Positions 44,287 through 56,985 of a stretch of DNA of 64,000 nt are shown here, in pieces. How positions within the stretch are numbered: the stretch's first letter is position 1; each line of letters begins with the position of its first letter. The DNA is from an uncultured Planctomycetota bacterium. Lineage in GTDB: Bacteria; Planctomycetota; Planctomycetia; Isosphaerales; Isosphaeraceae. The position numbers and the translations under genes are program-made. The notes under the pieces are model-generated. The model did not search any database. It was not told the DNA's origin and saw nothing but the letters and a program-made list of their open reading frames with translations. The DNA is taken from positions 32,001 to 96,000 of the forward strand of contig CAWJTV010000018.1 in assembly GCA_963845755.1 (NCBI GenBank), read 5' to 3'.

Positions 44287-44934
44287 TTGGCGACCTTCAC
44301 CGGATACGACCAGGACCGCATCGTCTTCGAGACGATCGCTGATGAGCGGGCCCCCGGCTTGCTACTCCTGATCCACGGGGCCGTCTTCGCAGGGGCACCT
44401 CTCTACGCCTCGGCACTGTACGGGCTGAAGGGGGCCTCAGCTTGGCTGCTCCTCGTCGTGGGAGTCCTGGCGGGCCTCGCCGAGACCGCCTTCGCCTCGA
44501 TCGTGCTGCTCAAATCCGAGTGGCTCGTCATCGACCTGCGGCGGCGGTCCTATACCGGGCATCGCGGGGTCTTGTTCTGGGGCGACAAGTGGTCCGGGCC
44601 CATCGGCGACTTCCATCATATCCGGCTGAGTGAGGTCCCTCGCGGGCGACATGGCCGTCATCGCCGCCTGGTCGTCGAATGGGTCTGGGCCGAGCCGGGA
44701 CGCCCTCCGTTCCGCGTCACCGGCTGGGGCCGCCTCAAGTCCTTCCGTATCACCCGATGTCCGCAGGGGGGTGACGGTCGAGGATTCCTGCGGGATCTCC
44801 GCGCCGTCGCTGAGGATGTGGGCCTCCCGTTGGTCGTCCCGGAGCGATATGTCGATGGCCTCGGCGTCAACGACCGGGAAGTCGACGGCCCGGCTAACAA
44901 GGCGATGCAGCGGACCCGCTGCGCGGGCCGCTGA
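44287..44934 (+). CDS. Cassette 1: hypothetical membrane protein (reads through its attC)
   Basis: TTG start after a G-rich RBS, two transmembrane helices, stop within attC. Confidence 0.65.
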   Translation: MATFTGYDQDRIVFETIADERAPGLLLLIHGAVFAGAPLYASALYGLKGASAWLLLVVGVLAGLAETAFASIVLLKSEWLVIDLRRRSYTGHRGVLFWGDKWSGPIGDFHHIRLSEVPRGRHGRHRRLVVEWVWAEPGRPPFRVTGWGRLKSFRITRCPQGGDGRGFLRDLRAVAEDVGLPLVVPERYVDGLGVNDREVDGPANKAMQRTRCAGR

Positions 44935-44950
44935 TCTTGCGTCGTTAGGC
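44892..44950 (+). repeat. attC site (59 bp)
   Basis: GGCTAAC..TGCAGCGGACCCGC..GCGGGCCGCTGA..GTTAGGC. Confidence 0.92.
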
Positions 44951-44967
44951 GGCTTACCGGAGGCACT

Positions 44968-45471
44968 ATGAACTACAAGCAAATAGCCTCGCGTCTCACC
45001 GGCATCAGTTGTCCCGTCTTCGGCGTTTCGTGGAATCCCCCGGCCACAGAGGTCGATGTCGCCCAGCGAGTCCTTTCGTTTCTCGAAGACCGCCGTGTAC
45101 TCTACAACGAGTACGAGATGGAGTTGCCTGACCATTGCATGATGTCGGTCATCGACATTCGCCGCTTTCTCACTGACGTTCTTGGCCGCCTTCCCAACAA
45201 GCAAGGGCTTCCGGCCCATCTGCGTATGATGCGTGCAGCTTGTCGTCAGTTCCTGGACAAGAATGGCGGCGAACGATTCCGCGATCACCAACCGCACATG
45301 TTTGGTGGCCCGGAGACGTGGGTTTTTGCCAGCGCACTTGGCGATCTCCGAACCACAATCGGGCTACACGTGGGAATCGTCTGCACCATGTATGGCCTTG
45401 GCGTCGAGGGCGACCTTGCGAAGATACTCCCCCCGCTGCCGAATGACGATAACGAGGAGGCCGATGCCTAA
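44968..45471 (+). CDS. Cassette 2: hypothetical protein (DUF6650-like)
   Basis: GGAGG RBS; IASRLTGISCPVFGVSWNPP..FLEDRRVLY. The stop TAA lies in R''. The family name is recalled, not searched. Confidence 0.75.
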   Translation: MNYKQIASRLTGISCPVFGVSWNPPATEVDVAQRVLSFLEDRRVLYNEYEMELPDHCMMSVIDIRRFLTDVLGRLPNKQGLPAHLRMMRAACRQFLDKNGGERFRDHQPHMFGGPETWVFASALGDLRTTIGLHVGIVCTMYGLGVEGDLAKILPPLPNDDNEEADA

Positions 45472-45525
45472 CAGGCGGTTGCAGCGGACCCGCCTGCGGC
45501 GGGCCGCTGAACCTTTTCGTTAGGC
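45466..45525 (+). repeat. attC site (60 bp)
   Basis: GCCTAAC...GTTAGGC with the conserved stem. Confidence 0.92.
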
Positions 45526-45545
45526 GGCAGTGTGGAGGCGACGCT

Positions 45546-45812
45546 ATGCGGTCGGCCACCCGATCTTCTCTATTCGTGGTCGCGTGGTCGGTCGGGCTGG
45601 CCTCGCGCTACGCGAACCGCGGTGATCCTCAGTGGGCCACGAAGTTGCGGGTGGCGTGCCTGTTCTTCGTCCTCGGAGGAGCCTTGCTCTGGTCGATCCA
45701 GAAGATCTCCAAGCGGCCGTGGCCTTGGTTCGTAGAAGGCATCGCACTACCGTTCGTCGCCGGCGGCTTGATCTACGGGATCGTCGCCGTACGCAACGCG
45801 TTCAGGGGATAG
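45546..45812 (+). CDS. Cassette 3: small membrane protein
   Basis: GGAGG RBS and three hydrophobic segments. Confidence 0.65.
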   Translation: MRSATRSSLFVVAWSVGLASRYANRGDPQWATKLRVACLFFVLGGALLWSIQKISKRPWPWFVEGIALPFVAGGLIYGIVAVRNAFRG

Positions 45813-45816
45813 CTTT

Positions 45817-45874
45817 GTCTAACAATGCGATGCAGCGGACCCGCTGTGCGGGCCGCTGATCTTGGGCGTTAGCC
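45817..45874 (+). repeat. attC site (58 bp)
   Basis: GTCTAAC...GTTAGCC. Confidence 0.92.
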
Positions 45875-45886
45875 AGCGGAGGGCTC

Positions 45887-46169
45887 ATGGCCGACGATCT
45901 TGTGCACCTCCTGCTCGACATCAAGCTCGCCGGCGACGGGTTCGCATCGCCGGACGAGTTTGATCTCCGGGACCGGCTCGTTGAGCGGATCGAGCGACTG
46001 GGCATCGGTGAGGTCGGCGGCTATGGCTCGGGAGTCGGCGGCATGGACATCTCCGTGCTCGTCGCTGATGAAGCTGAAGGTCGGGGGCGGCTGAGTCGAA
46101 CTCATGCAGGAGGTCGCGCCGGATGCTCGCTTCACCATCGAGGTACTTGCAGACGAGGATGACGGCTAA
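45887..46169 (+). CDS. Cassette 4: small acidic hypothetical protein, frameshift near 46090
   Basis: GGAGG RBS; GIGEVGGYGSGVGGMDISV. The alternative frame ends FTIEVLADEDDG* at the R'' TAA. Confidence 0.65.
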
Positions 46170-46224
46170 CGAGGCGATGCAGCGGACCCGCCTGTCGGCG
46201 GGCCGCTGATCTATGGCGTTAGCC
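46164..46224 (+). repeat. attC site (61 bp)
   Basis: GGCTAAC...GTTAGCC. Confidence 0.92.
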
Positions 46225-46234
46225 GGCGTGGGTC

Positions 46235-46564
46235 ATGACACACGATATCGAGGCCGAGTTGACCCTCCTTCCGACCGAGCACGGCGGGCGCCACCTTCCA
46301 GTGTCCTCCGGCTACCGCCCCCAGTTCTATTACAGCGGCCACGACTGGGACGCGGTCCATACATACGTCGATGTCACGGAAGCCCGTCCCGGCGATACCG
46401 TCACCGTCCGGTTGTCCTTCCTTAGCCCGGAAGCGCACGCGGGCAGGATCTTCGCCGGCATGCCGTTCCTCGTGCGCGAGGGTAATCGGGTCGTCGGATA
46501 TGGTCGCGTGACTCGCATCCTTGACTTGGAGGCGGCACATCGACAATCTTCGAAGGAGGGCTAA
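46235..46564 (+). CDS. Cassette 5: stand-alone EF-Tu C-terminal (domain III)-like protein
   Basis: EAELTLL.TEHGGRH.PV.SGYRPQFY..PGD.V....F.VREGNRVVGYG.VT.I parallels EF-Tu domain III. Confidence 0.8.
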   Translation: MTHDIEAELTLLPTEHGGRHLPVSSGYRPQFYYSGHDWDAVHTYVDVTEARPGDTVTVRLSFLSPEAHAGRIFAGMPFLVREGNRVVGYGRVTRILDLEAAHRQSSKEG

Positions 46565-46616
46565 CAAAGCGATGCAGCGGACCCGCTGCGCGGGCCGCTG
46601 AATTTGGGCGTTAGCC
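46559..46616 (+). repeat. attC site (58 bp)
   Basis: GGCTAAC...GTTAGCC. Confidence 0.92.
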
Positions 46617-46641
46617 AGCATTCCGATTGCACGGGGGGGAC

Positions 46642-47005
46642 ATGAGGGCCGATGATGACCCGTACTTCACGGCGACCGACAAGGCCAAGCCGCATCCGCC
46701 CCGCGGCATGGCGCAGCTCGTGGTGCGAATCCCTTGGTGCCTCTCCTGGGTCGCCGTGGCGCTCCTGTCTATGCAGGTGTTCGTCTCGCCGATCATCTAC
46801 CAGTCGCGGCTGGCGACCGGGGCCTATATCATGACGGAGATCGGGGCCGGGGCGGCTCGGTGCCATCTCGGCCTTCGGCGTGCTGGCCATCCGACTGGTG
46901 CGTTCAGGAGGCTCGCCCGATCCGTACACGAGGAGACTGGCTTGGTCGATACTGAGGGGCCTGCTGGTTGTCATCCTCATAATGACGGGGCTCGAGGTCG
47001 CCTGA
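46642..47005 (+). CDS. Cassette 6: membrane protein, frameshift near 46850
   Basis: Hydrophobic segments continue in the shifted frame (LGAISAFGVLAIRL..GLLVVILIMTGLEVA*). Confidence 0.55.
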
Positions 47006-47015
47006 GGGAGGCCCC

Positions 47016-47075
47016 GGCTAACAAGGCGATGCAGCGGACCCCGCTGCGCGGGGCCGCTGATCTGGGGCGTTAGAC
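47016..47075 (+). repeat. attC site (60 bp)
   Basis: GGCTAAC...GTTAGAC. Confidence 0.92.
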
Positions 47076-47084
47076 GGTGGGGCA

Positions 47085-47420
47085 ATGAGCGTCAGCGACG
47101 ATCTTGACCGGTTGTTTCCAGGCCACCGCTCGCCCGAGCGGGTTGCCGATTGGGAGGCGCTCGAGCAGCGCCTTGCCTACGGGCAGTCCGTCACTGGTAC
47201 GGTCGTCGTCAAATCCCCGTTCGGGGCGTGGGTCGACCTCGGCGTCGGTTTCCCTGCCCTGCTGGAGATCATCGTCATTGTGGGCCTGACGCCCGAGAAA
47301 TATCGTGCGGGTGACTGGTGCCCTGTCGGTAGCGAAGTCTCGGCGTTTGTCGGTGGATTCCGCGATGACTCTCATCAGATAGGGCTGTGGCAGGTGCCGG
47401 TCGGCCATGGCCGCGTCTAA
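47085..47420 (+). CDS. Cassette 7: stand-alone S1/OB-fold-like protein
   Basis: GQSVTGTVV...PFGAWVDLGVGFPALL..VGSEVSA.V.....QIGL. The stop lies in R''. Confidence 0.7.
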   Translation: MSVSDDLDRLFPGHRSPERVADWEALEQRLAYGQSVTGTVVVKSPFGAWVDLGVGFPALLEIIVIVGLTPEKYRAGDWCPVGSEVSAFVGGFRDDSHQIGLWQVPVGHGRV

Positions 47421-47473
47421 CTCCGCGTTGCAGTGGACCCGCCTGCGGCGGGCCGCTGAACTTTCCGTTAGGC
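47415..47473 (+). repeat. attC site (59 bp)
   Basis: GTCTAAC (complements the preceding GTTAGAC)...GTTAGGC. Confidence 0.92.
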
Positions 47474-47492
47474 TGCGGAGGCGCAGCGGGTT

Positions 47493-47810
47493 GTGGAGTG
47501 GCTCGTGCCATGGCATTCTGTCGCTGATGATCCAGCCTAGGTGGAGGGCATGGTACGTGAGTTACTCCGCGAGCTTGCTGAAGGTCACCCGCTCTACCGC
47601 CTCCCGGTGCGGACGTGGGGTCGCAGGCAGGACCGCGACGACGTGCTGTTCGCCATAGAAGATGGTAGCGGGCGCGTCGCGGTCGTCCATCTGGCGTGGA
47701 CTTGGAATCCACCCGATCCTCCGCCCTGGCCATGGACCATGCTGTATCGAAGCTTCGATGCGTGGATCGTCGAGGGTGTGCGCCGCGATTACGACGAGTT
47801 GCATGCCTAA
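47493..47810 (+). CDS. Cassette 8: hypothetical protein with an in-frame TAG at 47538 (or a start at ATG 47550)
   Basis: ELAEGHPLY..RRQDRDDVLF...VAVVHLAW..PWP. The stop lies in R''. Confidence 0.65.
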
Positions 47811-47862
47811 CCTGCGGTGGCAGCGGACCCGCTCCGCGGGCCGCCGATCTTGGGCGTGAGGT
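47805..47862 (+). repeat. attC site (58 bp), R' degenerate (GTGAGGT)
   Basis: GCCTAAC plus the conserved stem. Confidence 0.85.
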
Positions 47863-47917
47863 GGCGACAGGAGACACTCGGATTGTGGCTCGCGCGGGCG
47901 TGATGTACGCTGAGTGA

Positions 47918-48212
47918 ATGAGCCCGTCGATTCGAGAGGTCAACCCTGGCGAATTGCGGCTCCCACCGAGTCGGGCCAGCGGGGCCGACCCATGGAAGCT
48001 CCACCAGCAGATCCGACAATTTGGAGCGTCGAGGAACGGGATGCCCCCGATCCTTGTACGAGGATCCGGACGGCATCTTGGAGATCTCCGACGGGGTCAC
48101 CCGCGCCACCCGGATCGCCAAGCTGGCACCAGACCAGACAGTCCCGATCGTGGTGATCGGTCAGTATCGACGAAGCCGGGCAGGCTCCCCTTGCGTGAGG
48201 GACCGGTTATGA
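47918..48212 (+). CDS. Cassette 9a: small ParB/Srx-N-like protein, frameshift near 48058
   Basis: MPPILV-YEDPDGILEISDGVTRATRI..TVPIVV resembles the ParB-N PI.V...I.DG..R pattern. Confidence 0.55.
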
Positions 48213-48469
48213 GCGAGAGCGATACCCGTGTGGAATTGTTCGCCGCCCTCCAGGAATTGTCCGAGGTCATCCCCGAGATGCGGTCCGGCCAGCTCGTGGC
48301 GGCGGTCGGGGAGCTGTGCGCCGATCTCCACGGGCGCGGCCTCTGGGACGCCGCCGACGGCGAGTTGCTCAAGGCCGTATGGCTGTTCCGCCGCAACTAT
48401 GAGGCGGCTCTTACCCCGAGCCGGGACGATACCTTCTATGAACCCGCTGAAGTCAAGCCCCCCGACTGA
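48209..48469 (+). CDS. Cassette 9b: small helical protein whose original stop was displaced by the IS
   Basis: ATGA overlap with 9a; PEMRSGQLV..LWDAADGELL. The empty site restores GAT ACC TAA. Confidence 0.7.
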   Translation: MSESDTRVELFAALQELSEVIPEMRSGQLVAAVGELCADLHGRGLWDAADGELLKAVWLFRRNYEAALTPSRDDTFYEPAEVKPPD

Positions 48470-48800
48470 TTTTTTCCGGGCGTCCCGCGGGGCGCGGACA
48501 GCGATCGCTCCGAGTCCGACAGCGTATGTCCTGGCTCCCCGTTTGCGGGGAGCCAGGACACACGCTGTCTCTCGTTCTCCAGACAACGCCGGTGGTCCTG
48601 CGATCGACACTCTCCTTGTCCTTCTCGAAGAACTCCCGAGACCGCGGCTGGTGGCTTCGTCACGCGCGTCGCGCCTGCCAGGAGGCCGCGACCACCTTCT
48701 CTCCGTGTGGATCCTCACTCAAGGGACCGAGCACCCGTTACTCTGTTCGTCCGCGGACGACTCCGAAGCCAGGTGTGGGGACAAACCCATCTAACTCACG
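48435..48800 (-). ncRNA. Candidate bridge/seek RNA region of IS110 copy 1
   Basis: About 360 nt downstream of the transposase, conserved in copy 2, with strong hairpins and the junction-matching 7-mers GTTAGAT and AGAAGGT. Confidence 0.5.
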
Positions 48801-49950
48801 GTCGGCTGCCGCCGACCAGGCGCTTTCCGCCCCCTCGGGGACCTCGCCCTGCTCCAGGTATCGCCACAGCGCGATCAACAACTTGCGGGCCAGGGCCACA
48901 ATCCCCACCTTGCGCCGCCGCGTTGCCCTCGCCGAACCGACGCTGATACCACTGGCTCAAGGCGCTGTGGAGCTGCCAGTGCAGCCAGCCCCAGGCGATC
49001 TCCACCGCCATCCACCGCAGACGACAGTTCCCCGCCTTGCTGATCCCTTGCTCGCGCTGACCGTCGCCACTGGCGTACGGCGTCGGGGCCAAACCGGCGA
49101 GGCTCGCCAGCTCGCGGCGGTTCTGGATCTGCCGCCAGCCGAAGAACTCGCGGACGAACCGCGTCGCGCTCATCGGACCGATCGCCTTGAGGTTCAGCAG
49201 CAGCCGCGGCTTCTCGACGTCGGCCGTCGCGTCGTCGCGGAACGCTCGCCGCTGGGCGTTCTCCAGGTCGCGCACCTGGCGGTCCACCAGTGTCCATCGC
49301 TTGAACTCGCGGCGGATGCGGGCACTCAGCTCGGCCGGGACCGGCCTGCCGTCCCATTGGCGAAGTTGGCCGAGGCGTTCCGGCAACGGGTCATCGACCA
49401 CGACGTCAAGGCCGAGGTTGGCGAGGAGTCCCTTGATGCGATTGGAGTGCTCGGTGCGCTGGCCCTTGACGGCGATCAGCTCGCGGTGGGGCTGACGGCG
49501 GTCCTCATCGTCGGGGGTGGGGATGCGGACGACGCTCCAGAGCTTGTGCTCGCCGCCGTGATAACGGATCAACATCGTCAGGAGCTTGCCGACGTCGAGC
49601 CGATCGCTCTTGGCGCGACGCGCGCGGCGGTTGACCTCGATGCTGGCGGCGTCAACGACGAGGTTCGTGACTGCGTGATGTTGGAGATCGCGATGGAGCC
49701 AGAAGCCGTCGCGGCCGGCCTCGTAGCAGGAGACGAGGGGGACATCGCCGGAAAGGGCGAAGCGTTGCCTGGCGAGGAGGATCTCGCGCTGGAGACCTTC
49801 GAGATCGCGAGCGGGGATGGTGCGGAGCCGCGGCTTCTGGGCCATGGCGGTGGTGAAGGCGAGGTTCAAGGACGTCCAGCCGAGGTCGAAGGCGAGGAAG
49901 AGCGTGTTCGAGGCGGTGGTGGTAGGATGAAGGTCGTGGGTCGCTGACAT
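48796..49950 (-). CDS. IS110 DEDD recombinase/transposase, frameshift near 48915
   Basis: AFDLG, YEAG, AKSDRLD, GLAPTPYASG, GISKAGN.RLR. The tail KVGIVALARKLLIALWR is in a shifted frame. Confidence 0.92.
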   Translation of the reverse strand: MSATHDLHPTTTASNTLFLAFDLGWTSLNLAFTTAMAQKPRLRTIPARDLEGLQREILLARQRFALSGDVPLVSCYEAGRDGFWLHRDLQHHAVTNLVVDAASIEVNRRARRAKSDRLDVGKLLTMLIRYHGGEHKLWSVVRIPTPDDEDRRQPHRELIAVKGQRTEHSNRIKGLLANLGLDVVVDDPLPERLGQLRQWDGRPVPAELSARIRREFKRWTLVDRQVRDLENAQRRAFRDDATADVEKPRLLLNLKAIGPMSATRFVREFFGWRQIQNRRELASLAGLAPTPYASGDGQREQGISKAGNCRLRWMAVEIAWGWLHWQLHSALSQWYQRRFGEGNAAAQGGDCGPGPQVVDRAVAIPGAGRGPRGGGKRLVGGSRP

Positions 49951-50050
49951 GGTAAGACTCCGAGGTTGAGAGGGATTTGGTGAAAGACCTCTTCTGAGGA
50001 GCTTACCGTCGGCGGCTCACCGTTTTCAGCCCGGTCGCTCCGGACATAGT

Positions 50051-50100
50051 ATCTAACCAGGCGATGCAGCGGACCCGGCCCGCTGAGCTTGACGTTAGGC
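50051..50100 (+). repeat. attC site (50 bp, short loop); R'' ATCTAAC rebuilt by the IS end
   Basis: ATCTAAC..TGCAGCGGACCCGGCCCGCTGA..GTTAGGC. Confidence 0.8.
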
Positions 50101-50111
50101 GGCTTCGAGCG

Positions 50112-50357
50112 ATGGCTCGTGAAGACGTGAAGCTCGACATCCTGCGGCTGGTCGCCCGCCATGACGGAGAGTGGTTCTGGTATCACATCGATCGCGCACT
50201 CAGCGGCGCTCGCATCGGATGCGTCGGCCCCTTCACGGCCGAGATCGGTGATTTGGAGTCCGCAGGACTGATCGAGACCCGCCCGAACTTCGCGCTTGGC
50301 GATCAGGGGCGTTACTGGCGAACTGAGGCGGGACGCGCGGCGGTCGCGGACGCCTAA
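50112..50357 (+). CDS. Cassette 10: small winged-helix-like protein
   Basis: LESAGLIE..RYWRTEAGRAA pattern; stop in GCCTAAT. Confidence 0.6.
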   Translation: MAREDVKLDILRLVARHDGEWFWYHIDRALSGARIGCVGPFTAEIGDLESAGLIETRPNFALGDQGRYWRTEAGRAAVADA

Positions 50358-50449
50358 TCGGCGCGGCAGGGGACCTGAACCGCCACAGCACTTAAGGATG
50401 CGAACGAACTCATCTCGGTGGCCCCGGACACTGGCCCAAGTGGTCATGC
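50352..50449 (+). repeat. Degenerate long attC (98 bp)
   Basis: GCCTAAT..GGCAGGGGACC...GTCATGC with weak pairing. Confidence 0.45.
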
Positions 50450-50457
50450 GGCTTCCA

Positions 50458-50485
50458 TTGCTGGTCGGTCCGATCGCGGTATAAT
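50458..50485 (+). promoter_or_regulatory. Promoter of the toxin-antitoxin cassette
   Basis: TTGCTG-N16-TATAAT, followed by GGAGG and ATG at 50502. Confidence 0.6.
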
Positions 50486-50501
50486 GTTGGGGGAGGTGTC
50501 C

Positions 50502-50721
50502 ATGATCCAGACAGTTGAAGCGGTGGTCAACGCGACCGGCCACGTGCGATTGCTCGGCGAAGTGCGAGTCGAACGCGCCCCGTCGGGCTTTGGTGACCGT
50601 GCTCGAAGAGCCGGCCGCTGTACCCGGTGAGGCGGCGCTGCTGGCCGAGGCGGCCTTGGCCGCCGATTGGTCGAGGCCGGAGGAGGATGCCGCGTGGTCG
50701 TACCTTCAGCCGGCGAAGTAG
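50502..50721 (+). CDS. Cassette 11a: putative antitoxin, frameshift near 50575
   Basis: MIQTVEAVV..G.VRLL..RRALVTVLEE..LAADWSRPEEDAAW; overlaps the toxin. Confidence 0.7.
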
Positions 50722-51038
50722 TGCTGGTCCCGTTCCCCTTCTCGGACCTGTCGCAGTCCAAGTTGCGGCCGGCAGTCTGCCTGGCCCCCGCCGGCCGGGG
50801 CGACTGGGTGCTCTGCCAGATCACGAGTAGTCCCTACGGCGATCCCTCGGCGGTGCCGTTGGACGCAACGGACTTCACCACGGGCGGGCTGCTGGTGGCG
50901 AGTTTCGCCCGGCCGGGTAAGCTCTTCACCGCCAGCGTCGGCCTCATGGTGAAATCGGTCGGCATTCTTTCTCCCGCTGCGCTGGCCCGGGTACTTTCGG
51001 TGGTCGCTGCACTCTTCCAGCCACCTTCGGGGCCCTGA
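50694..51038 (+). CDS. Cassette 11b: PemK/MazF-family endoribonuclease toxin
   Basis: GEVVLVPFPFSDLSQSKLRPAV..CQITS..S.ARPGKLFT; GGAGGAGG RBS. Confidence 0.88.
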   Translation: MVVPSAGEVVLVPFPFSDLSQSKLRPAVCLAPAGRGDWVLCQITSSPYGDPSAVPLDATDFTTGGLLVASFARPGKLFTASVGLMVKSVGILSPAALARVLSVVAALFQPPSGP

Positions 51039-51039
51039 C

Positions 51040-51098
51040 GCCTAACGAGGCGATCCAGCGGACCCGCTGGCGCGGGCCGCTGATCTTTAACGTTAGGA
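51040..51098 (+). repeat. attC site (59 bp)
   Basis: GCCTAAC...GTTAGGA. Confidence 0.92.
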
Positions 51099-51117
51099 AG
51101 CAAGAAAAGGGGCTGGC

Positions 51118-51453
51118 ATGAAAGCCTTCGTGGTGTCTCTCAACGGCCAACCGTTCGTGACAGCCGGGGTCGGTGATGATGGCGTCCTCGCCACAGGGCT
51201 CAGCTGGGTCGGTGGCTCCCCACCACGTCCCGTCGAGGGCCGGCTAGATTTTCGCGTGGGCGGCGTTGACGGGCGCACTGGGGAGCACATCAATTGGTCG
51301 GTCCCCGAGATCGGCGTTGGCGACGAGATCACGATCAAGGTCATCGAGACGGCTCAGGTGACGCCTGAAGACGAGCGCTACCGCTTCGACGAGTCGAACT
51401 GCCATATCGGCGTCAGGGGCGAAGAGACCGAGGCGGGAGAAGAGGAGCCTTGA
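51118..51453 (+). CDS. Cassette 12: hypothetical protein
   Basis: MKAFVVSLNG..AGVGDDGVL..VGDEITIKVIE; fills the cassette. Confidence 0.75.
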   Translation: MKAFVVSLNGQPFVTAGVGDDGVLATGLSWVGGSPPRPVEGRLDFRVGGVDGRTGEHINWSVPEIGVGDEITIKVIETAQVTPEDERYRFDESNCHIGVRGEETEAGEEEP

Positions 51454-51456
51454 GTT

Positions 51457-53024
51457 CTTCTATGAAACCGCTGAAGTCAAGCCCCCCGACTGATTCTTTC
51501 CGGGCGCCCCGCGGGCGCGGACAGCGATCGCTCCGAGTCCGACAGCGTGTGTCCTGGCTCCCCGCAAACGGGGAGCCAGGACACACGCTGTTTCTCGTTC
51601 TCCAGGCAACGCCGGTGGTCCTGCGATCGGCACACTCCTTCCTCTTGCGAAAGAACTCCCGGGACCGCGGCTGGTGGCTTCGTCACGCGCGTCGCGCCTG
51701 CCAGGAGGCCACGACCACCTTCTCTCCGTGTCGGTCCTCATTCCAGGGACCGAGCACCCGTTACTCTGTTCGTCCGCGGACAACTCCGAAGCCAGGTGTG
51801 GGGACAAACCCATCTAACTCACGGTCGGCTGCCGCCGACCAGGCGCTTTCCGCCCCCTCGGGGACCTCGCCCTGTTCCAGGTATCGCCACAGCGCGATCA
51901 ATAACTTGCGGGCCAGGGCCACAATCTCCACCTTCGCGCCGCGCGTTGCCCTCGCCGAACCGACGCTGATACCACTGGCTCAAGGCGCTGTGGGGCTGCC
52001 AGTGCAGCCAGCCCCAGGCGATCTCCACCGCCATCCACCGCAGACGACAGTTCCCCGCCTTGCTGATCCCTTGCTCGCGCTGACTGTCGCCACAGGCGCA
52101 CGGCGTCGAGGCCAAGCCGGCGAGGCTCGCCAGCTCGCGGCGGTTCTGGATCTGCCGCCAGCCGAAGAACTCGCGGACGAACCGCGTCGCGCTCATCGGA
52201 CCGATCGCCTTGAGGTTCAGCAGCAGCCGCAGCTTCTCGACGTCGGCCGTCGCGTCGTCGCGGAAGGCACGCCGCTGGGCGTTCTCCAGGTCGCGCGCCT
52301 GGCGGTCCACCAAAGTCCAGCGGTCGAACTCGCGGCGGATGCGGGCACTCAGCTCGGCCGGGACCGGCCTCCCATCCCATTGGCGAAGTTGGCCGAGGCG
52401 TTCCGGCAACGGGTCATCGGCCTCGACGTCAAGGCCGAGGTTGGCGAGCAGGCCTTTGATGCGATGGGAGTGCTCGGTGCGCTGACCCTTGAGGGCGATC
52501 AGCTCGCGATGGGGCTGGCGGCGATCTCCGTCGTCGGGCGTGGGGATGCAGACGATGCTCCAGAGCTTGTGCTCGCCGCCGTGATAACGGATCAACATCG
52601 TCAGGAGCTTGCCGACGTCGAGCCGATCGCTCTTGGCGCGGCGGGCGCGGCGATTGCCCTCGATGCTGGCGTCGTCGACGACGCAGTTGGTGACGGCGTG
52701 GTGTTGGAGATCGCGATGGAGCCAGAAGCCGTCGCGGCCGGCCTCGTGGCCGGAGAGCACGGGGGCGTCGCCGGGGAGGGCGAAGCGGTCTCGGGCGCAG
52801 AGGATCTCGCGCTGAAGGGCGTCGAGATCGCGAGCGGGGATGGTGCGGAGCCGCGGCTTCTGGGCCATGGCGGTGGTGAAGGCGAGGTTCCAGGACGTCC
52901 AGCCGAGGTCGAAGGCGAGGTCGAGCGTGTTCGAGGCGGCGGTGGTAGGATGAAGGTCGTGGGTCGCTGACATGGTAAAACTCCGAGGTTGAGAGGGATT
53001 TGGCGAAAGACCTCTTCTGAGGAG
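51457..53024 (-). mobile_element. IS110-family element, copy 2 (diverged, upstream end truncated)
   Basis: Collinear with copy 1 from CTTCTATG (51457) to CTTCTGAGGAG (53024); lacks about 50 bp of that end. Confidence 0.88.
51819..52973 (-). pseudogene. IS110 recombinase, probably inactive
   Basis: Same motifs as copy 1, but PYASG has become PCACG (conserved Ser lost), with a frameshift near 51935. Confidence 0.8.
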
Positions 53025-53076
53025 GTTAGAGCGCCCCACCGTTGGGTGGCACCCACTCGAAGCCTGCTCCCGAAGA

Positions 53077-53115
53077 ACCCCCTGAACCCCCCCTGCGAAG
53101 GGGGGGTTCGGGGGT
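53077..53115. repeat. REP-like hairpin
   Basis: ACCCCCTGAACCCCCCC-TGCGA-AGGGGGGGTTCGGGGGT; relatives at 57928-58012. Confidence 0.65.
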
Positions 53116-53449
53116 GAGTTCGCAGCGCCTCAGGGCGTGCGCAACGCAAGAGTTAAGCGCTCTAGCTGGCGGCCCGCGGAGGTGGCTGCGTGGGCGGGTT
53201 GCTGGTGGAGCTCAACTTCAGGACCATAGTCGAGGTCTTCAAGGCAGCCTGGCGACATGACTTCCCCAATTCCCCGTGAGGTCCCCGGCGCGCAGATGTC
53301 ATTGAGGTCGCCTCGCAGCCAATGCCCTCACATCCCCTCTGGGACCGCGAGATCGACGGCCGTTAGTTGTCCCGGGGTTCGACGGTCGTTATTGTAACGG
53401 GGAGAAGTCGCCTCTCACGAAGGGAGGTGACGCTCGAGAGACTGCGAAA

Positions 53450-53854
53450 ATGCATTTGGAGTTTGTCGTAGTCGGTGTTCCCATCTCAAACCAGTCGGCA
53501 GGAACTGCCGCCCTTCAAGCCTGGCGGACGGCGGTAGAGACCGAAGTAAAGAAGAACTGGACTGGTACTCCACTGACCGGCAGGCTGAAGGCGGTTATCA
53601 TCAACTTTCACACGGGTGATAAGCCATCCCTCGACCTCGACAACATGACGAAACCGATACTGGACGTCATGCAGCAAATCGTCTACGACGATGACCGCCA
53701 GGTTCGGCAGGCCGAACTCACACACGTCCGGATCGACGCGCCGTTCGTCTTCGTCGGGGCCTCGAAACTTATCGTGGCCGCCGTGCAAGCCGGTAATGAG
53801 TTTGTGTACGTGAGAATAGAGGACCCGATCGATCCATTCCCATTACCGACGTGA
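53450..53854 (+). CDS. Cassette gene: RusA-family Holliday junction resolvase-like protein
   Basis: EFVVVGVPIS.Q, DLDNMTKPILDVM, VYDDDRQV. Confidence 0.85.
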   Translation: MHLEFVVVGVPISNQSAGTAALQAWRTAVETEVKKNWTGTPLTGRLKAVIINFHTGDKPSLDLDNMTKPILDVMQQIVYDDDRQVRQAELTHVRIDAPFVFVGASKLIVAAVQAGNEFVYVRIEDPIDPFPLPT

Positions 53855-53858
53855 TACC

Positions 53859-54542
53859 ATGGATTACGAACAAGAGTTGAATCGTTTGGCAGACATTTAT
53901 CGAGGTCACGGCTACGACGTGACCGTCCGGCCTGGCCCGGATCAATTGCCTCCGTTCGCCAGAGATTTCAGGGTGGAAATCCTCGGCCGCCGCGGAGCCG
54001 AGGGTGTGCTCGTTGCAGTCAGGAGAAACCGCGACGAAGTTGCAGCCGACAGCGACATGCAGCGGTATGCTGAGACCACGGGAGCTCAGCCTGGGTGGCG
54101 ATTCGATTTCGCCATTCTCGAGTCGGAGCAGCCGAATGCCAGAGAGGTGCGGGGAGCGAAGGAGCTTTCGCAGGACGACATCAACAAGTCACTTGAACAG
54201 GCACGGGAACTCAGCCGAATGGGCTTCACAGGGTTTGCGGTCGTCGCAGCTTGGGCCACGTTGGAAGCGGCCATGCGGATGCGGCTCCGGGCTCTCGGAC
54301 AGGAAGCGGGTTGGGGAAGCATCCCCAGGCAGATGACAAGAGAACTCTATTCCGCAGGCGCGTTATCCCCAGACGAATTCCGTCGAATTGAGAGCGCGTC
54401 CCAGCTCAGGAACCAGATCGTTCACGGCTTCGCGTCGCAGCCCGCTGAGCCAGGCGATTCTGAGGCTGCGATGGTCGAAGTTCTGAGCGGCGTCGCTCAT
54501 CGCCTCGTTAATGAATCCCAACCCGCAGCGCAATCCACTTGA
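53859..54542 (+). CDS. Cassette gene: REase_AHJR-like N-domain plus HEPN-like C-domain
   Basis: LADIYRGHGYDV..P...LPPF..PGWRFD, then AWATLEAAMR...LRNQIVHG (Rx4H). Confidence 0.65.
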   Translation: MDYEQELNRLADIYRGHGYDVTVRPGPDQLPPFARDFRVEILGRRGAEGVLVAVRRNRDEVAADSDMQRYAETTGAQPGWRFDFAILESEQPNAREVRGAKELSQDDINKSLEQARELSRMGFTGFAVVAAWATLEAAMRMRLRALGQEAGWGSIPRQMTRELYSAGALSPDEFRRIESASQLRNQIVHGFASQPAEPGDSEAAMVEVLSGVAHRLVNESQPAAQST

Positions 54543-54556
54543 GCCGACTACCTATC

Positions 54557-54614
54557 GGCTAACCCGCGGTTGCAGCGGACCCGCTGCGCGGGCCGCTGAA
54601 CCTGGGCGTTAGCC
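54557..54614 (+). repeat. attC site (58 bp)
   Basis: GGCTAAC...GTTAGCC. Confidence 0.92.
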
Positions 54615-54631
54615 GGCGGGGGAACGTAATC

Positions 54632-54946
54632 ATGAAAGCGATCTCGTCCGTGCTGCTCATCCTGGCAGTCGCCTGCTCCGGCACGGGGCAAGAGCCGGAG
54701 GACGGCTACGTCCCGGACGATGGATTCGTCCCAAGCAAGGAAGTTGCTATCAAGATTGCCGTCGCGGTCTGGGAGCCGATCTACGGCGCGGAGAAAATCG
54801 CCAAGGAGAAGCCCTACCGTGCGACCCTGGCCGACGGCGTTTGGACCGTCGAGGGATCGCTATCGAAGGGCAGCAACGGCGGTGTGGCCCTCGCCAGGAT
54901 CGCGAAGAAGGACGGCCGCATCCTTCGCGTCACCCACGGCAAGTGA
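54632..54946 (+). CDS. Cassette gene: YbbC/YhhH / NTF2-fold immunity-like lipoprotein
   Basis: Lipobox-like LAVAC; VPSKEVAIKIA.AVW.PIYG..I..EKPY..VW.VEGSL..GG....I.K.DG.IL...HGK. Confidence 0.8.
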   Translation: MKAISSVLLILAVACSGTGQEPEDGYVPDDGFVPSKEVAIKIAVAVWEPIYGAEKIAKEKPYRATLADGVWTVEGSLSKGSNGGVALARIAKKDGRILRVTHGK

Positions 54947-54975
54947 CTCTGAACCGGGGCGCCATCGAGGGTCGC

Positions 54976-55032
54976 GCCTAGCCTTGCGATGCAGCGGACC
55001 CGCTTTGCGGGCCGCTGAGCTTTGTGTGAGGT
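54976..55032 (+). repeat. attC site (57 bp), both cores degenerate
   Basis: GCCTAGC, conserved stem, GTGAGGT. Confidence 0.8.
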
Positions 55033-55038
55033 GGCGTA

Positions 55039-55386
55039 GTGAGAGCGTCCACGCGACAACGTGACCATGGACTCCCGCTCGTCCTTCGTTGGTCGCGGGA
55101 CGTCCTGGGAGCGTTCGTCACTCTGGTAGCCCTCGTGTTCACGACCCGGAACTGGGGGACGCCAGCGGCGGCAGTCAACTGCGCCCTCGCTGTCGCCGGG
55201 GCCGTCGGGCTCCGGCTGCGATCGTGGCCGGTCCTCGCAGCCTTGTCTGGTGCGTATCTCGGCGCCATCGCGGGGACCTCCATGGGGGACTCGGCGGTAA
55301 ACGCGCCGGTTCATGGTCTGTTGCTCGCCATCTGCGGGACGGTTGTGGGATATGGCTTTCAAATGATGGAGCGGGGACCGGCCTAA
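55039..55386 (+). CDS. Cassette gene: small membrane protein
   Basis: Four hydrophobic segments; stop in R''. Confidence 0.6.
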   Translation: MRASTRQRDHGLPLVLRWSRDVLGAFVTLVALVFTTRNWGTPAAAVNCALAVAGAVGLRLRSWPVLAALSGAYLGAIAGTSMGDSAVNAPVHGLLLAICGTVVGYGFQMMERGPA

Positions 55387-55439
55387 CGAAGCATGGCAGC
55401 AGCCCCACTGCGCGGGGCCGCTGATCCTGGGCGTTAGGC
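55381..55439 (+). repeat. attC site (59 bp)
   Basis: GCCTAAC...GTTAGGC. Confidence 0.88.
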
Positions 55440-55461
55440 GGCGGAAGGGGAGGGTTTGGGG

Positions 55462-56100
55462 ATGCGTTCGTTCTGGGGCGAGTTCGTTCGCGCGCGTGCC
55501 TTCTGGGTGAGCTACGTCAGCGCGGGGGTGGATTTCGTCGGTTGCGGCAGCCTCCAGGCTGACCAACGGCTGCTCTGGGAGGAGCCGACGTGCGGGGCGA
55601 CGCTGATGTTCCGCTTCCCCGACTCCCACCGGCTGCGCCTGGATGTTGCGGCGGGGGAGCATAAGCTGCAACTGCTGCACCCCGACTACGACGAGCCGCA
55701 ACTTGTTGGCACGATGGACTGTCACCAGATGAGCGATCTCTTCCGGTGGGACGAGTTCCGGGCGGTCACCCGGCACCTGGCCACGACTTCCGGCCCGACG
55801 TCGGCGCACGAACTGTTGCTGAGTTTCTACGTCGCCGTCACCGAGGATTGTGCGGATGAGCATGCGGTGGTGCTGCGGCGGACCCTGGAAGCGTCGGAGG
55901 TATTTGCCGTCCCGGAAATCGAGCATATCTTGGCCTATACGCGTCGGGTTGCGGTGCGTCGGGATTTCCGATGGGTCCACACCCCGGGGTTGGGGTGGCT
56001 GGCAGAGGGCCGCGACACCTACTGCATGCGGCACACGCGGGGTGAGCTCGACTTCGATCGGTTCAGCCGGTTCCTGGGAGCGCTGGCCAGCGACGCGTGA
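55462..56100 (+). CDS. Cassette gene: hypothetical protein
   Basis: GGGAGG RBS; fills the cassette; stop in R''. Confidence 0.7.
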   Translation: MRSFWGEFVRARAFWVSYVSAGVDFVGCGSLQADQRLLWEEPTCGATLMFRFPDSHRLRLDVAAGEHKLQLLHPDYDEPQLVGTMDCHQMSDLFRWDEFRAVTRHLATTSGPTSAHELLLSFYVAVTEDCADEHAVVLRRTLEASEVFAVPEIEHILAYTRRVAVRRDFRWVHTPGLGWLAEGRDTYCMRHTRGELDFDRFSRFLGALASDA

Positions 56101-56194
56101 CCTGCGCTGCAACGGAACCGGACCGCGGCTGCGGCTTTCTGGTAGAATCGAGGCAGATGCTCGGCGGGCCGGGCTGTTGAGCTTGTTGTTACGC
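56095..56194 (+). repeat. Long-type attC (100 bp), degenerate
   Basis: GCGTGAC..TGCAACGG..CCGGACCGC...GCGGGCCGG.CTGTTGA..GTTACGC. Confidence 0.65.
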
Positions 56195-56256
56195 GGCGGC
56201 CAATCTACCGACAGTGGTGATGTCGCGGGGGACCACGCCTGCAGTCGGGGGCTACT

Positions 56257-56604
56257 ATGCAAGAATTCGGGCCCTACTTCCTTCTTGCCTCAATGCTCGG
56301 TTCGCTCCTCGCTCCTCTCCTCATCGGAATCTTACCGAGGGAGGCAGCCAGGCGTGTGGTGGTATGGGCTCTCCGCATCTTGGTCCCGACCTTCCTCGTA
56401 AGTTTCATCTCGCTCGCGGCACAAGGGGATCGAGGCTTCCTCAGCAACTCGCAATCCGTGCTAACGGGCTCCGTCTTCTTGATCCTGTCCGTAGGCCTCG
56501 GCTACTTCGTATCATGGCTGCGTCACACATTGTCGAGCCGAGGTATTCAAGGCTCCCGGGGTGGGAAAATCAAGGCGGGACTATTGGACGATGAATTGGC
56601 CTGA
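56257..56604 (+). CDS. Cassette gene: small membrane protein
   Basis: Three transmembrane segments; stop in GCCTGAC. Confidence 0.65.
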   Translation: MQEFGPYFLLASMLGSLLAPLLIGILPREAARRVVVWALRILVPTFLVSFISLAAQGDRGFLSNSQSVLTGSVFLILSVGLGYFVSWLRHTLSSRGIQGSRGGKIKAGLLDDELA

Positions 56605-56645
56605 CCTGCGGTTGCAGCGGGCCGCTGCAACCTTCACGATTGGAG
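56599..56645 (+). repeat. Collapsed attC remnant
   Basis: GCCTGAC followed by the perfect palindrome GGTTGCAGCGG-G-CCGCTGCAACC; no GTT core. Confidence 0.55.
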
Positions 56646-56654
56646 GCTCTCTCG

Positions 56655-56918
56655 ATGGTCCGTCAACTCTTCACTGTCGAGGATGTCTTCACGATCCGTC
56701 AGCGTGGCACCATCCTCGTGCCGGGAATCGTGCCCGAGGGCGATGAGTGGTTCCATATCGGCGACGGCTTGTGCCTGCGCCGCCCCGATGGGTCGGAAGT
56801 TCGGACGGCGATCGATGGCATCGACTTCTTCAACGTCAGCGAGCACGGTGCTTACGCGATCGTGGTGCCCTTACCTGCATCCGATGTGCCACTTGGCATC
56901 GAGGTCTGGTCGGCATAG
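56655..56918 (+). CDS. Cassette gene: stand-alone EF-Tu domain II-like beta-barrel
   Basis: FTVEDVFTIRQRGTILV.G......IGD.L......RTAIDGIDFF parallels EF-Tu IEDVFSI.GRGTV..G..VG...T.VTG.EMF. GGAGG RBS. Confidence 0.65.
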   Translation: MVRQLFTVEDVFTIRQRGTILVPGIVPEGDEWFHIGDGLCLRRPDGSEVRTAIDGIDFFNVSEHGAYAIVVPLPASDVPLGIEVWSA

Positions 56919-56924
56919 GCTGGA

Positions 56925-56985
56925 GCCCAACAATTGGTTGCAGCCGACGCGCCTGTCGGCGGGCCGCTGAACCTTCGCGTTAGGC
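56925..56985 (+). repeat. attC site (61 bp)
   Basis: GCCCAAC...GTTAGGC. Confidence 0.88.

Follow-up and report, generated by a model that had tools for sequence, protein, structure and literature searches.

The window analysed here is a stretch of 64,000 nt from the Isosphaeraceae (Planctomycetota) contig CAWJTV010000018.1 (assembly GCA_963845755.1). It contains an integron-type cassette array (window positions 44894-56983), with at least 12 attC sites between short plus-strand open reading frames (ORFs), and two copies of an insertion sequence (IS) of the IS110 family. The attC sites of the array have the design CTAAC...CAGCGGACCCGC...GCCGCTGA...GTTAG, and matches to the attC pattern numbered 22 in the window versus 2.67 expected, most sites being matched on both strands. 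The subject of this report is the non-coding region (NCR) at the right end of the IS, downstream of the transposase gene, which in all probability encodes the element's own guide RNA, of the bridge or seek type, aimed at attC. The element and its insertion site comprise the following features, with positions counted within the window.

48433..50054, minus strand: IS copy 1, 1622 nt with the AG core dinucleotide counted at both ends, junctions read.
48796..49950, minus strand: transposase ORF of copy 1, 384 amino acids (aa) as called, in frame with the intact relative only to residue 347.
50053..50100, plus strand: remainder of the interrupted attC site (CTAAC...GTTAGGC), with the same design as the intact attC sites of the window.
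About 51457..53043, minus strand: IS copy 2, with the same deletion and frame shift as copy 1 and the guide motifs at 51818-51812 and 51723-51717.

The left junction of copy 1 reads ...CCTGGTT-AG|ATACTATG, and the right junction reads ...TTCATAGA-AG|GTATCG, the IS side ending in ...CATAGA-AG. Removal of copy 1 in silico restored the attC inverse core ACCTAAC and gave a TAA stop back to the cassette ORF that starts at 47918. Copy 1 was 92-95% identical to five other copies in the same genome, which held six IS copies, a solo 345-nt right-end fragment and a left-end fragment. The left end of the IS measured ~105 nt, and the right end ~480 nt in full-length copies. Copy 2 has its right end in common with copy 1, and its first ~30 nt and left junction are lost. 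All five own-genome insertions with a left junction, as well as the insertion at locus L049, had entered the same end of a complete attC-type site in the same orientation; overall, a complete site of this type was found at 6 of the 26 insertions compared below. The target in this genome is the inverse-core end of the integron attC site (the complement of RYYYAAC, read GTTAG|GC).

The transposase ORFs of the window matched PF02371. The copy 1 ORF was 86% identical to the intact 395-aa protein of a relative (L014) over residues 1-347, after which it was out of frame, and the L014 protein scored 166 bits (cut-off 140) on the NCBI model NF033542, 'IS110 family RNA-guided transposase'. Recombinases of the IS110 family combine an N-terminal domain of the DEDD/RuvC-like type with the C-terminal PF02371 domain; the Pfam model of the N-terminal domain was not detected at E <= 1. 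Intact transposases of relatives had 395 aa and 400 aa, and the GL-P----SG motif is present as GLAPTPYASG. Similarity to the IS621 (E = 0.0011) and ISCro4 (E = 0.00017) proteins was weak and limited to the C-terminal part. A protein search of the plasmid collection gave a best match of 49.6% identity, with all 1038 matching records below 60%; Klebsiella records among the plasmid matches listed had ~26% identity, and the one Klebsiella match inspected lay outside any integron. A distant-mode search of the same collection with the RNA region gave no match. A guide RNA is expected in an IS110-type element, since bridge and seek RNAs are established and the NCBI family model already describes the protein as RNA-guided.

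Relatives were found at 11 loci in public genome contigs, mostly metagenome-assembled genomes of Planctomycetota, and a metagenome pattern scan added four loci on metagenome contigs, among them L024 with a new guide allele. Matches turned up in 11 of the 120 other genomes sampled from the same order, and in none of a phylum-wide sample of 400 other genomes. Flanks were compared for 26 insertions with a recoverable left junction, from the genome itself, related genomes and metagenomes. The core AG (CT on the other strand) was present at the left junction in 26/26 and at the recovered right junctions in 24/24. Uninterrupted target sites adjoin three of the relatives (L015, L018 and L040).

The transposase-strand RNA module was delimited from an alignment of 17 NCRs and an RNAalifold consensus, and a seven-helix model that we drew up was then tested. 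In full-length relatives the RNA would be about 205-240 nt long, with a 5' stem-loop, an outer stem, a target-binding loop and a donor-binding domain. The parts assigned to it in copy 1, and the long hairpin that lies past its 3' end, all on the minus strand, are as follows, in the 5' to 3' direction of the RNA after the module itself.

48646..48834, minus strand: bridge/seek RNA module as kept in copy 1, target-binding loop followed by donor-binding domain (from alignment and consensus fold).
48818..48821, minus strand: candidate right-target guide GCCT, which complements core AG + GC and occupies the last positions of the target loop's 5' strand.
48800..48817, minus strand: hairpin H1, between the two target guides; 4 of 7 pairs changed on both sides, 98% of cells paired.
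48789..48799, minus strand: left-target guide GTGAGTTAG followed by AT in the handshake position (see below); core AG at 48792-48791; contains GTTAGAT and is unpaired in the consensus.
48777..48782, minus strand: 3' strand GTCCCC of the stem closing the target loop (helix 2), 98.6% paired in full-length copies.
48747..48760, minus strand: small invariant hairpin h2, five pairs, 100% paired in the 17 sequences.
48737..48742, minus strand: tentative right-donor guide AGTAAC, placed by analogy of position only; its AGTA complements the TACT of the left end ATACTATG.
48705..48734, minus strand: hairpin h3, between the donor-side strands; 10 pairs, 97% paired, one pair changed on both sides.
48694..48702, minus strand: putative left-donor guide AGAGAAG + GT; core AG at 48697-48696; contains AGAAGGT.
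48652..48692, minus strand: hairpin h4 (48692-48668) and the 3' strand of the stem closing the donor domain (48659-48652), helices 7 and 4.
48518..48569, minus strand: long conserved hairpin 3' of the RNA module, its stem kept through many paired substitutions in L013, L015, L016 and L022.

The model consists of an outer stem, a stem closing the loop that contains H1, and a stem closing the domain that contains h2, h3 and h4, and its main helices were recovered independently by RNAalifold. Its 48 pairs in seven helices were 96.1% paired over the 17 sequences, compared with at most 53.3% when the partners were slid, and eight pairs were changed on both sides, compared with two to four when slid. 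None of 500 shuffles reached any of the five structure measures. In the stem closing the donor domain, where 48659-48652 partners 48771-48764, one pair (114:238) showed three compensatory changes. A first-pass annotation of this DNA had proposed hairpins at 48760-48747 and 48569-48518; both are real and conserved, the longer one with many compensatory changes in relatives. Searches of Rfam with the window region and the full-length L013 region returned no family, only sub-threshold microRNA matches to the long hairpin. That hairpin (~46 nt) lies ~75 nt past the RNA module, has an equivalent in all relatives, and is not followed by a T run; it may serve the right end in processing or protein binding.

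The same annotation had singled out GTTAGAT (48795-48789) and AGAAGGT (48700-48694) on the transposase strand as copies of the two junctions of copy 1, and had read them as guides. Both 7-mers are at these positions and recur unchanged in copy 2. They match the junctions of copy 1, left and right respectively; copy 2 has no left junction left to compare. The ~360-nt downstream region was also said to be retained in both copies, and 300 nt of it aligned with 89% identity. GTTAGAT occurred three times on the two strands of the window versus 1.58 expected from shuffles, each time in the IS: at the left junction (50057-50051), in the copy 1 NCR and in the copy 2 NCR (51818-51812). For AGAAGGT the count was eight versus 4.1 expected; the right junction (48437-48431) and the NCR of each copy are among these sites. 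Scaling the shuffle means to the correct strand of a 366-nt region leaves ~0.005 and ~0.012 expected occurrences of the two 7-mers, so chance is unlikely. Both motifs fall in unpaired strands of the consensus structure backed by compensatory changes. They are non-coding: in full-length relatives the transposase stop lies ~150 nt upstream of the motif, which falls within a 'corrected' reading frame in the window copies only because of their deletion.

The guide-RNA interpretation is also supported by the way in which the putative target guides vary with the insertion sites. H1 is followed by a constant CCG and then by 8 nt ending in the core AG; this 8-nt stretch had nine alleles over the 26 insertions, and they tracked the left flank. 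GTTAG-type guides were found next to flanks ending ...GTTAG, GGTTAG next to ...GGTTAG, GGGTTAG next to ...(G)GGTTAG, GGGTCAG next to ...GGGTCAG, TTATTCAG next to GATTATTCAG, and TTAGTCAG next to GATTAGTCAG. At the six non-core positions 113 of 156 comparisons matched the flank, whereas permutation of the alleles gave a mean of 81.1 and only 9 of 20,000 permutations reached 113. The match ran unbroken from the core for 3-6 nt, in addition to the two core nucleotides, in 24/26 insertions. Covariation at the position of GTTAG over nine guide alleles was one of the tests that the first-pass annotation had set for its own claim; two others, the placement of the motifs in loops and outside the coding sequence, likewise came out in its favour.

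The strand just 5' of H1 complements the core and the right flank, and is the candidate right-target guide. Its complementary runs reached 9 nt in L044, 7 in L049, 6 in L050 and 5 in L034, L038 and L039; the mean run was 3.54 with the cognate flank versus 2.49 with non-cognate flanks, and runs of at least 7 nt occurred in 2/24 cognate but 0/524 non-cognate comparisons. In these comparisons, both target guides covary with their flanks. In the window copies the right-target guide is short (GCCT), which would fit an attC target, where the right side consists of the last two inverse-core bases followed by variable cassette sequence.

On the donor side, A(G/T)AGAAG follows h3 as the left-target guide follows H1, and it ends in the same core AG. 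Compared with the right IS end ...ATAGAAG, it showed 5-nt identity in the window allele and 7-nt identity in 12 of 26 elements. The assignment of donor guides rests on position and identity only, because the IS ends barely vary and their few variants are not mirrored.

Two bases beyond a guide may have a further role. In IS621 a handshake guide consists of the two nucleotides that directly follow a right guide, whether target or donor, and these pair with the other DNA once the top strands have been exchanged (PMC11208158; this and the other papers cited are represented here by excerpts). If our element is viewed on the opposite strand, with core CT, GTTAG would take the place of the IS621 right target guide and the AT after it would stand in the handshake position, from which it would pair with the IS end. 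Both the first base of this pair and the first IS base were an invariant A (26/26), and both bases matched in 18/26. In the donor loop, AGAAG was followed by GT in 22 elements and by AC in four. The right flank read AC in all three AC elements for which it was known, while among GT elements both bases matched in 2/21, one in 14 and none in five. The first-pass annotation had equated this GT with the first two target bases; that holds for copy 1 and L053, the two matching cases of the 21, and fails elsewhere, since most flanks opposite the GT allele read GC and G alone matches. The handshake idea for the donor loop therefore has some support in the AC lineage, and the exact 7-mer match to the right junction of copy 1 was partly luck. 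Taken as a whole, the earlier guide-RNA interpretation was largely supported.

From these features a course of transposition can be proposed. The right-end region would be transcribed, and the recombinase, binding the RNA, would excise the IS as a circle. The left-target strand after H1 (6-8 nt equal to the left flank plus core AG) would pair with the bottom target strand, and the strand before H1 would pair with the core and right flank that it complements. In the donor domain, A(G/T)AGAAG, which equals the right IS end, and AGTAAC, which partly complements the left end, would address the circle junction. Circle junction and target would in this way be held side by side by the RNA for strand exchange at the AG/CT core.

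A candidate promoter that would depend on a circular intermediate can be read from the IS ends.

48451..48456, minus strand: candidate -35 box TTGACT in the right end; the promoter would form only across the circle junction.

When the IS ends are joined they read TTGAC(T/C), 17 nt, and GATACT spanning the junction. Such a junction promoter would fit those described for IS621 (PMC11208158). The AT-rich patch upstream of the RNA as a promoter is a guess. Contigs from metatranscriptomes of three studies carried the NCR of relatives at about 87-93% identity, corresponding to 48460-48825 (X15), 48634-48764 (X16) and 48684-48822 (X20).

Published elements offer several points of comparison. attC-targeting seekRNAs have already been described for ISKpn4 and ISPst6, and what is added here is a new lineage and a damaged copy. 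In those elements the seekRNA comes from the downstream NCR and carries the top-strand match 5' of the bottom-strand match (PMC11187229, excerpts). Like them, the planctomycete element has an IS110/IS1111-type recombinase, a long NCR downstream of the gene and the attC end as its target, and its RNA has one short stretch per target strand in the same order (PMC11187229). Unlike them, it resides in Planctomycetota with chromosomal cassette arrays. A long NCR or guide RNA downstream of the gene, in the right end, is shared with IS1111 elements, in 93% of which right-end bridge RNAs have been predicted (PMC11208160). The recombinase, however, has 395-400 aa, whereas 330-350 aa are stated for IS1111 in the excerpts of PMC11187229, and the sub-terminal inverted repeats of 7-17 bp given for IS1111 (PMC11208160) have no equivalent here: no inverted match scoring at least 7 was found between the first and last 100 nt of the IS, and a 5-bp CATAG/CTATG repeat was seen by eye.

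With IS621, as portrayed in excerpts of PMC11208160 and PMC11208158, the element shares two pseudo-symmetric modules, which serve target and donor respectively and each run stem, guide, stem-loop, guide, and a conserved core dinucleotide, CT there and AG here (CT on the other strand). As in IS621, two bases beyond one guide are placed for possible pairing after strand exchange (PMC11208158). The differences are that the RNA-coding region follows the transposase gene and occupies the right end instead of the left, the site polarity and guide order are inverted relative to the direction of the gene, and the donor domain has two extra hairpins, h2 and h4 (PMC11208160, PMC11208158). ISPpu9, whose small RNA Ssr9 is encoded downstream of the transposase, likewise belongs to the IS110 family, and its RNA region also occurs as solo copies elsewhere in the genome (PMC12288879, excerpts); the likeness is one of description only, and ISPpu9 differs in targeting repetitive extragenic palindromic (REP) sequences in Pseudomonas.

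Several observations weigh against the interpretation of the region as a working guide-RNA gene. Missing from the window copies are the AT-rich patch upstream, the 5' stem-loop and one of the two outer-stem strands, and all six transposase genes in the assembly are read in at least two frames, so that none is intact. The contigs from RNA libraries derive from relatives and not from this genome; they also span the transposase gene, come without strand or end information and may reflect DNA carry-over, which makes them weak evidence. Scans of L013 and the window copy for a sigma-70 consensus promoter 5' of the RNA found none. Folded singly, L013 (z = -1.19) and copy 1 (z = +0.21) did not surpass shuffled sequences, so the structural support rests on comparison. 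Same-genome copies inherit their guides by descent and the 26 insertions are not independent, which the allele-level permutation allows for only in part; guide and flank fitted poorly in two of them, c3 (attC with GTGAG) and L037. The donor side showed no covariation, the right end being nearly invariant: its variant CATAGCAG (L022, L032) is not mirrored in the donor guide, the G/T difference in the donor guide has no counterpart in the IS end, and AGTAAC ignores the left-end variants ATACC, ACACT and ATACTT (L034, L035, L038).

The strongest competing explanation grants the ancestral element the mechanism described above, and holds that the RNA module in the window is a dead relic and that the copies are decaying pseudo-elements; we put this only a little short of an even chance. 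It draws on a deletion of ~165 bp common to both window copies, which the other four copies of the genome do not have. The deleted stretch held the true end of the transposase gene, and with it the C-terminus of the protein, the AT-rich patch, the conserved 5' stem-loop and the 5' strands of two stems, the outer one among them; at the junction, ...GAGGGGGCGGAA of the coding sequence is joined to AGCGCCTGG of the first loop. The frame shift after residue 347, the missing left end of copy 2 and the state of the transposase genes in the assembly point the same way. The deleted form is, however, present at two different attC sites and must have moved or been copied after the deletion. The guides and the five remaining whole helices are intact, and the coding-derived GGGGGC (48834-48829), the only possible partner for GTCCCC in copy 1, could replace the lost strand and re-close the target loop, a pairing that the single-sequence fold of copy 1 did not predict. 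Sequencing errors could account for the frame shifts, which fall in G+C-rich runs; the assembly is a draft of 87.9% completeness. The window copies are a deletion derivative and may work only in trans, if at all; they may also represent a shortened form that spread once the deletion had joined the RNA to the 3' end of the gene.

A second alternative follows the short seekRNA model, in which only the first loop is a guide, the second domain is a scaffold for the protein, the AGAAG match is incidental, and the protein finds the IS ends by their short inverted repeat CATAG/CTATG. The missing covariation on the donor side, with the right end AGCAG of L022 and L032 not mirrored and the left-end variants ignored, speaks for it, as does the report that an 82-nt RNA with target matches only sufficed for movement (PMC11187229, excerpts). 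We nevertheless consider it unlikely, as A(G/T)AGAAG stands on the 3' strand of its loop after a hairpin, like the target guide, with the same core AG and a 7-nt match in 12/26 elements, and as the change to AC after AGAAG in four elements, with AC in the flank in 3/3 known cases, is hard to explain unless this strand meets DNA. That the matches are due to chance or to DNA-level features (protein-binding sites or a coding 3' end) and that there is no RNA is scarcely credible: the 7-mers were indeed chosen after the junctions had been seen, and a frame-corrected ORF of copy 1 would run through GTTAGAT, but the flank covariation over nine alleles and the compensatory helix changes both contradict it, the motif lies beyond the stop codon in full-length relatives, and the protein family is named for RNA guidance.

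With the guide-RNA reading preferred, a wider proposition can be put forward tentatively, at clearly less than even probability: that the elements form a separate planctomycete bridge-RNA lineage, with a long recombinase, a 5-bp repeat and a two-loop RNA in the right end, whose attC targeting arose independently of the proteobacterial IS1111-attC elements, which has been naturally re-aimed within one bacterial family, and of which the window copies are a shortened form. The two target guides may have changed in step during this re-aiming, which would have covered attC and no fewer than three other targets of the repeat type (..TTATTCAG|GCGTCAC; ..GGGTCAG|ACC or GAACC; ..GGGTTAG|GC). The nine guide alleles are a clean natural experiment within one bacterial family, each allele matching its own flanks on both sides of the core, and they allow the guide positions of a right-end-encoded RNA to be mapped without bench work. 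Intact orthologues of the L014 and L015 types are available, with a guide layout unlike that of IS621. The cassette arrays of Planctomycetota appear to be invaded by RNA-guided ISs at the same attC end, which bears on array decay and rearrangement.

The insertion sites of relatives differed in their surroundings. Those guided by TTATTCAG (L015:2335-2402, L018:2014-2082) sit in a ~62-bp tandem unit, with an empty site beside the filled one, and the site is followed by a hairpin and a T run, resembling a terminator. Relatives guided by GGGTCAG adjoin short repeats or palindromes, GGAACC...GGTTCC and tandem GGCCGAGGGT units (flanks of L040, L034, L035 and L044), and these flanks recall the REP-type targets described for other members of the IS110 family. 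In two other genomes, five insertions (L013, L017, L047, L039 and L046) had the left flank ...GCGGCGGGCCGGGTCCGCTGCAGCGCGAGGTTAG in common, which is like an attC stem without the CTAAC end at the usual distance, and may be a different class of attC-like repeat.

Three further observations concern rearranged copies. On a metagenome contig (L027:1326), another element is inserted at a TA within the guide-coding GTTAGAT of a relative. Self-targeting by the guide was considered for this breakpoint and dropped, since the break is at a TA and the sequence upstream of it encodes what we take to be the N-terminus of an IS630-type transposase; the scarcity of TA sites in AT-poor genomes may account for the spot. 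The solo right-end fragment of the present genome (L011, contig C39:464326-464671) begins its similarity exactly after the target-guide core (...TATCG|ATGGGTTTG), all sequence upstream of the guide having been replaced. The left end of copy 2 has given way to ~400 nt of unrelated sequence (window 53044-53450), adjoined by no attC on that side, which holds a hairpin of G/C runs (GAACCCCCCC...GGGGGGGTTC).

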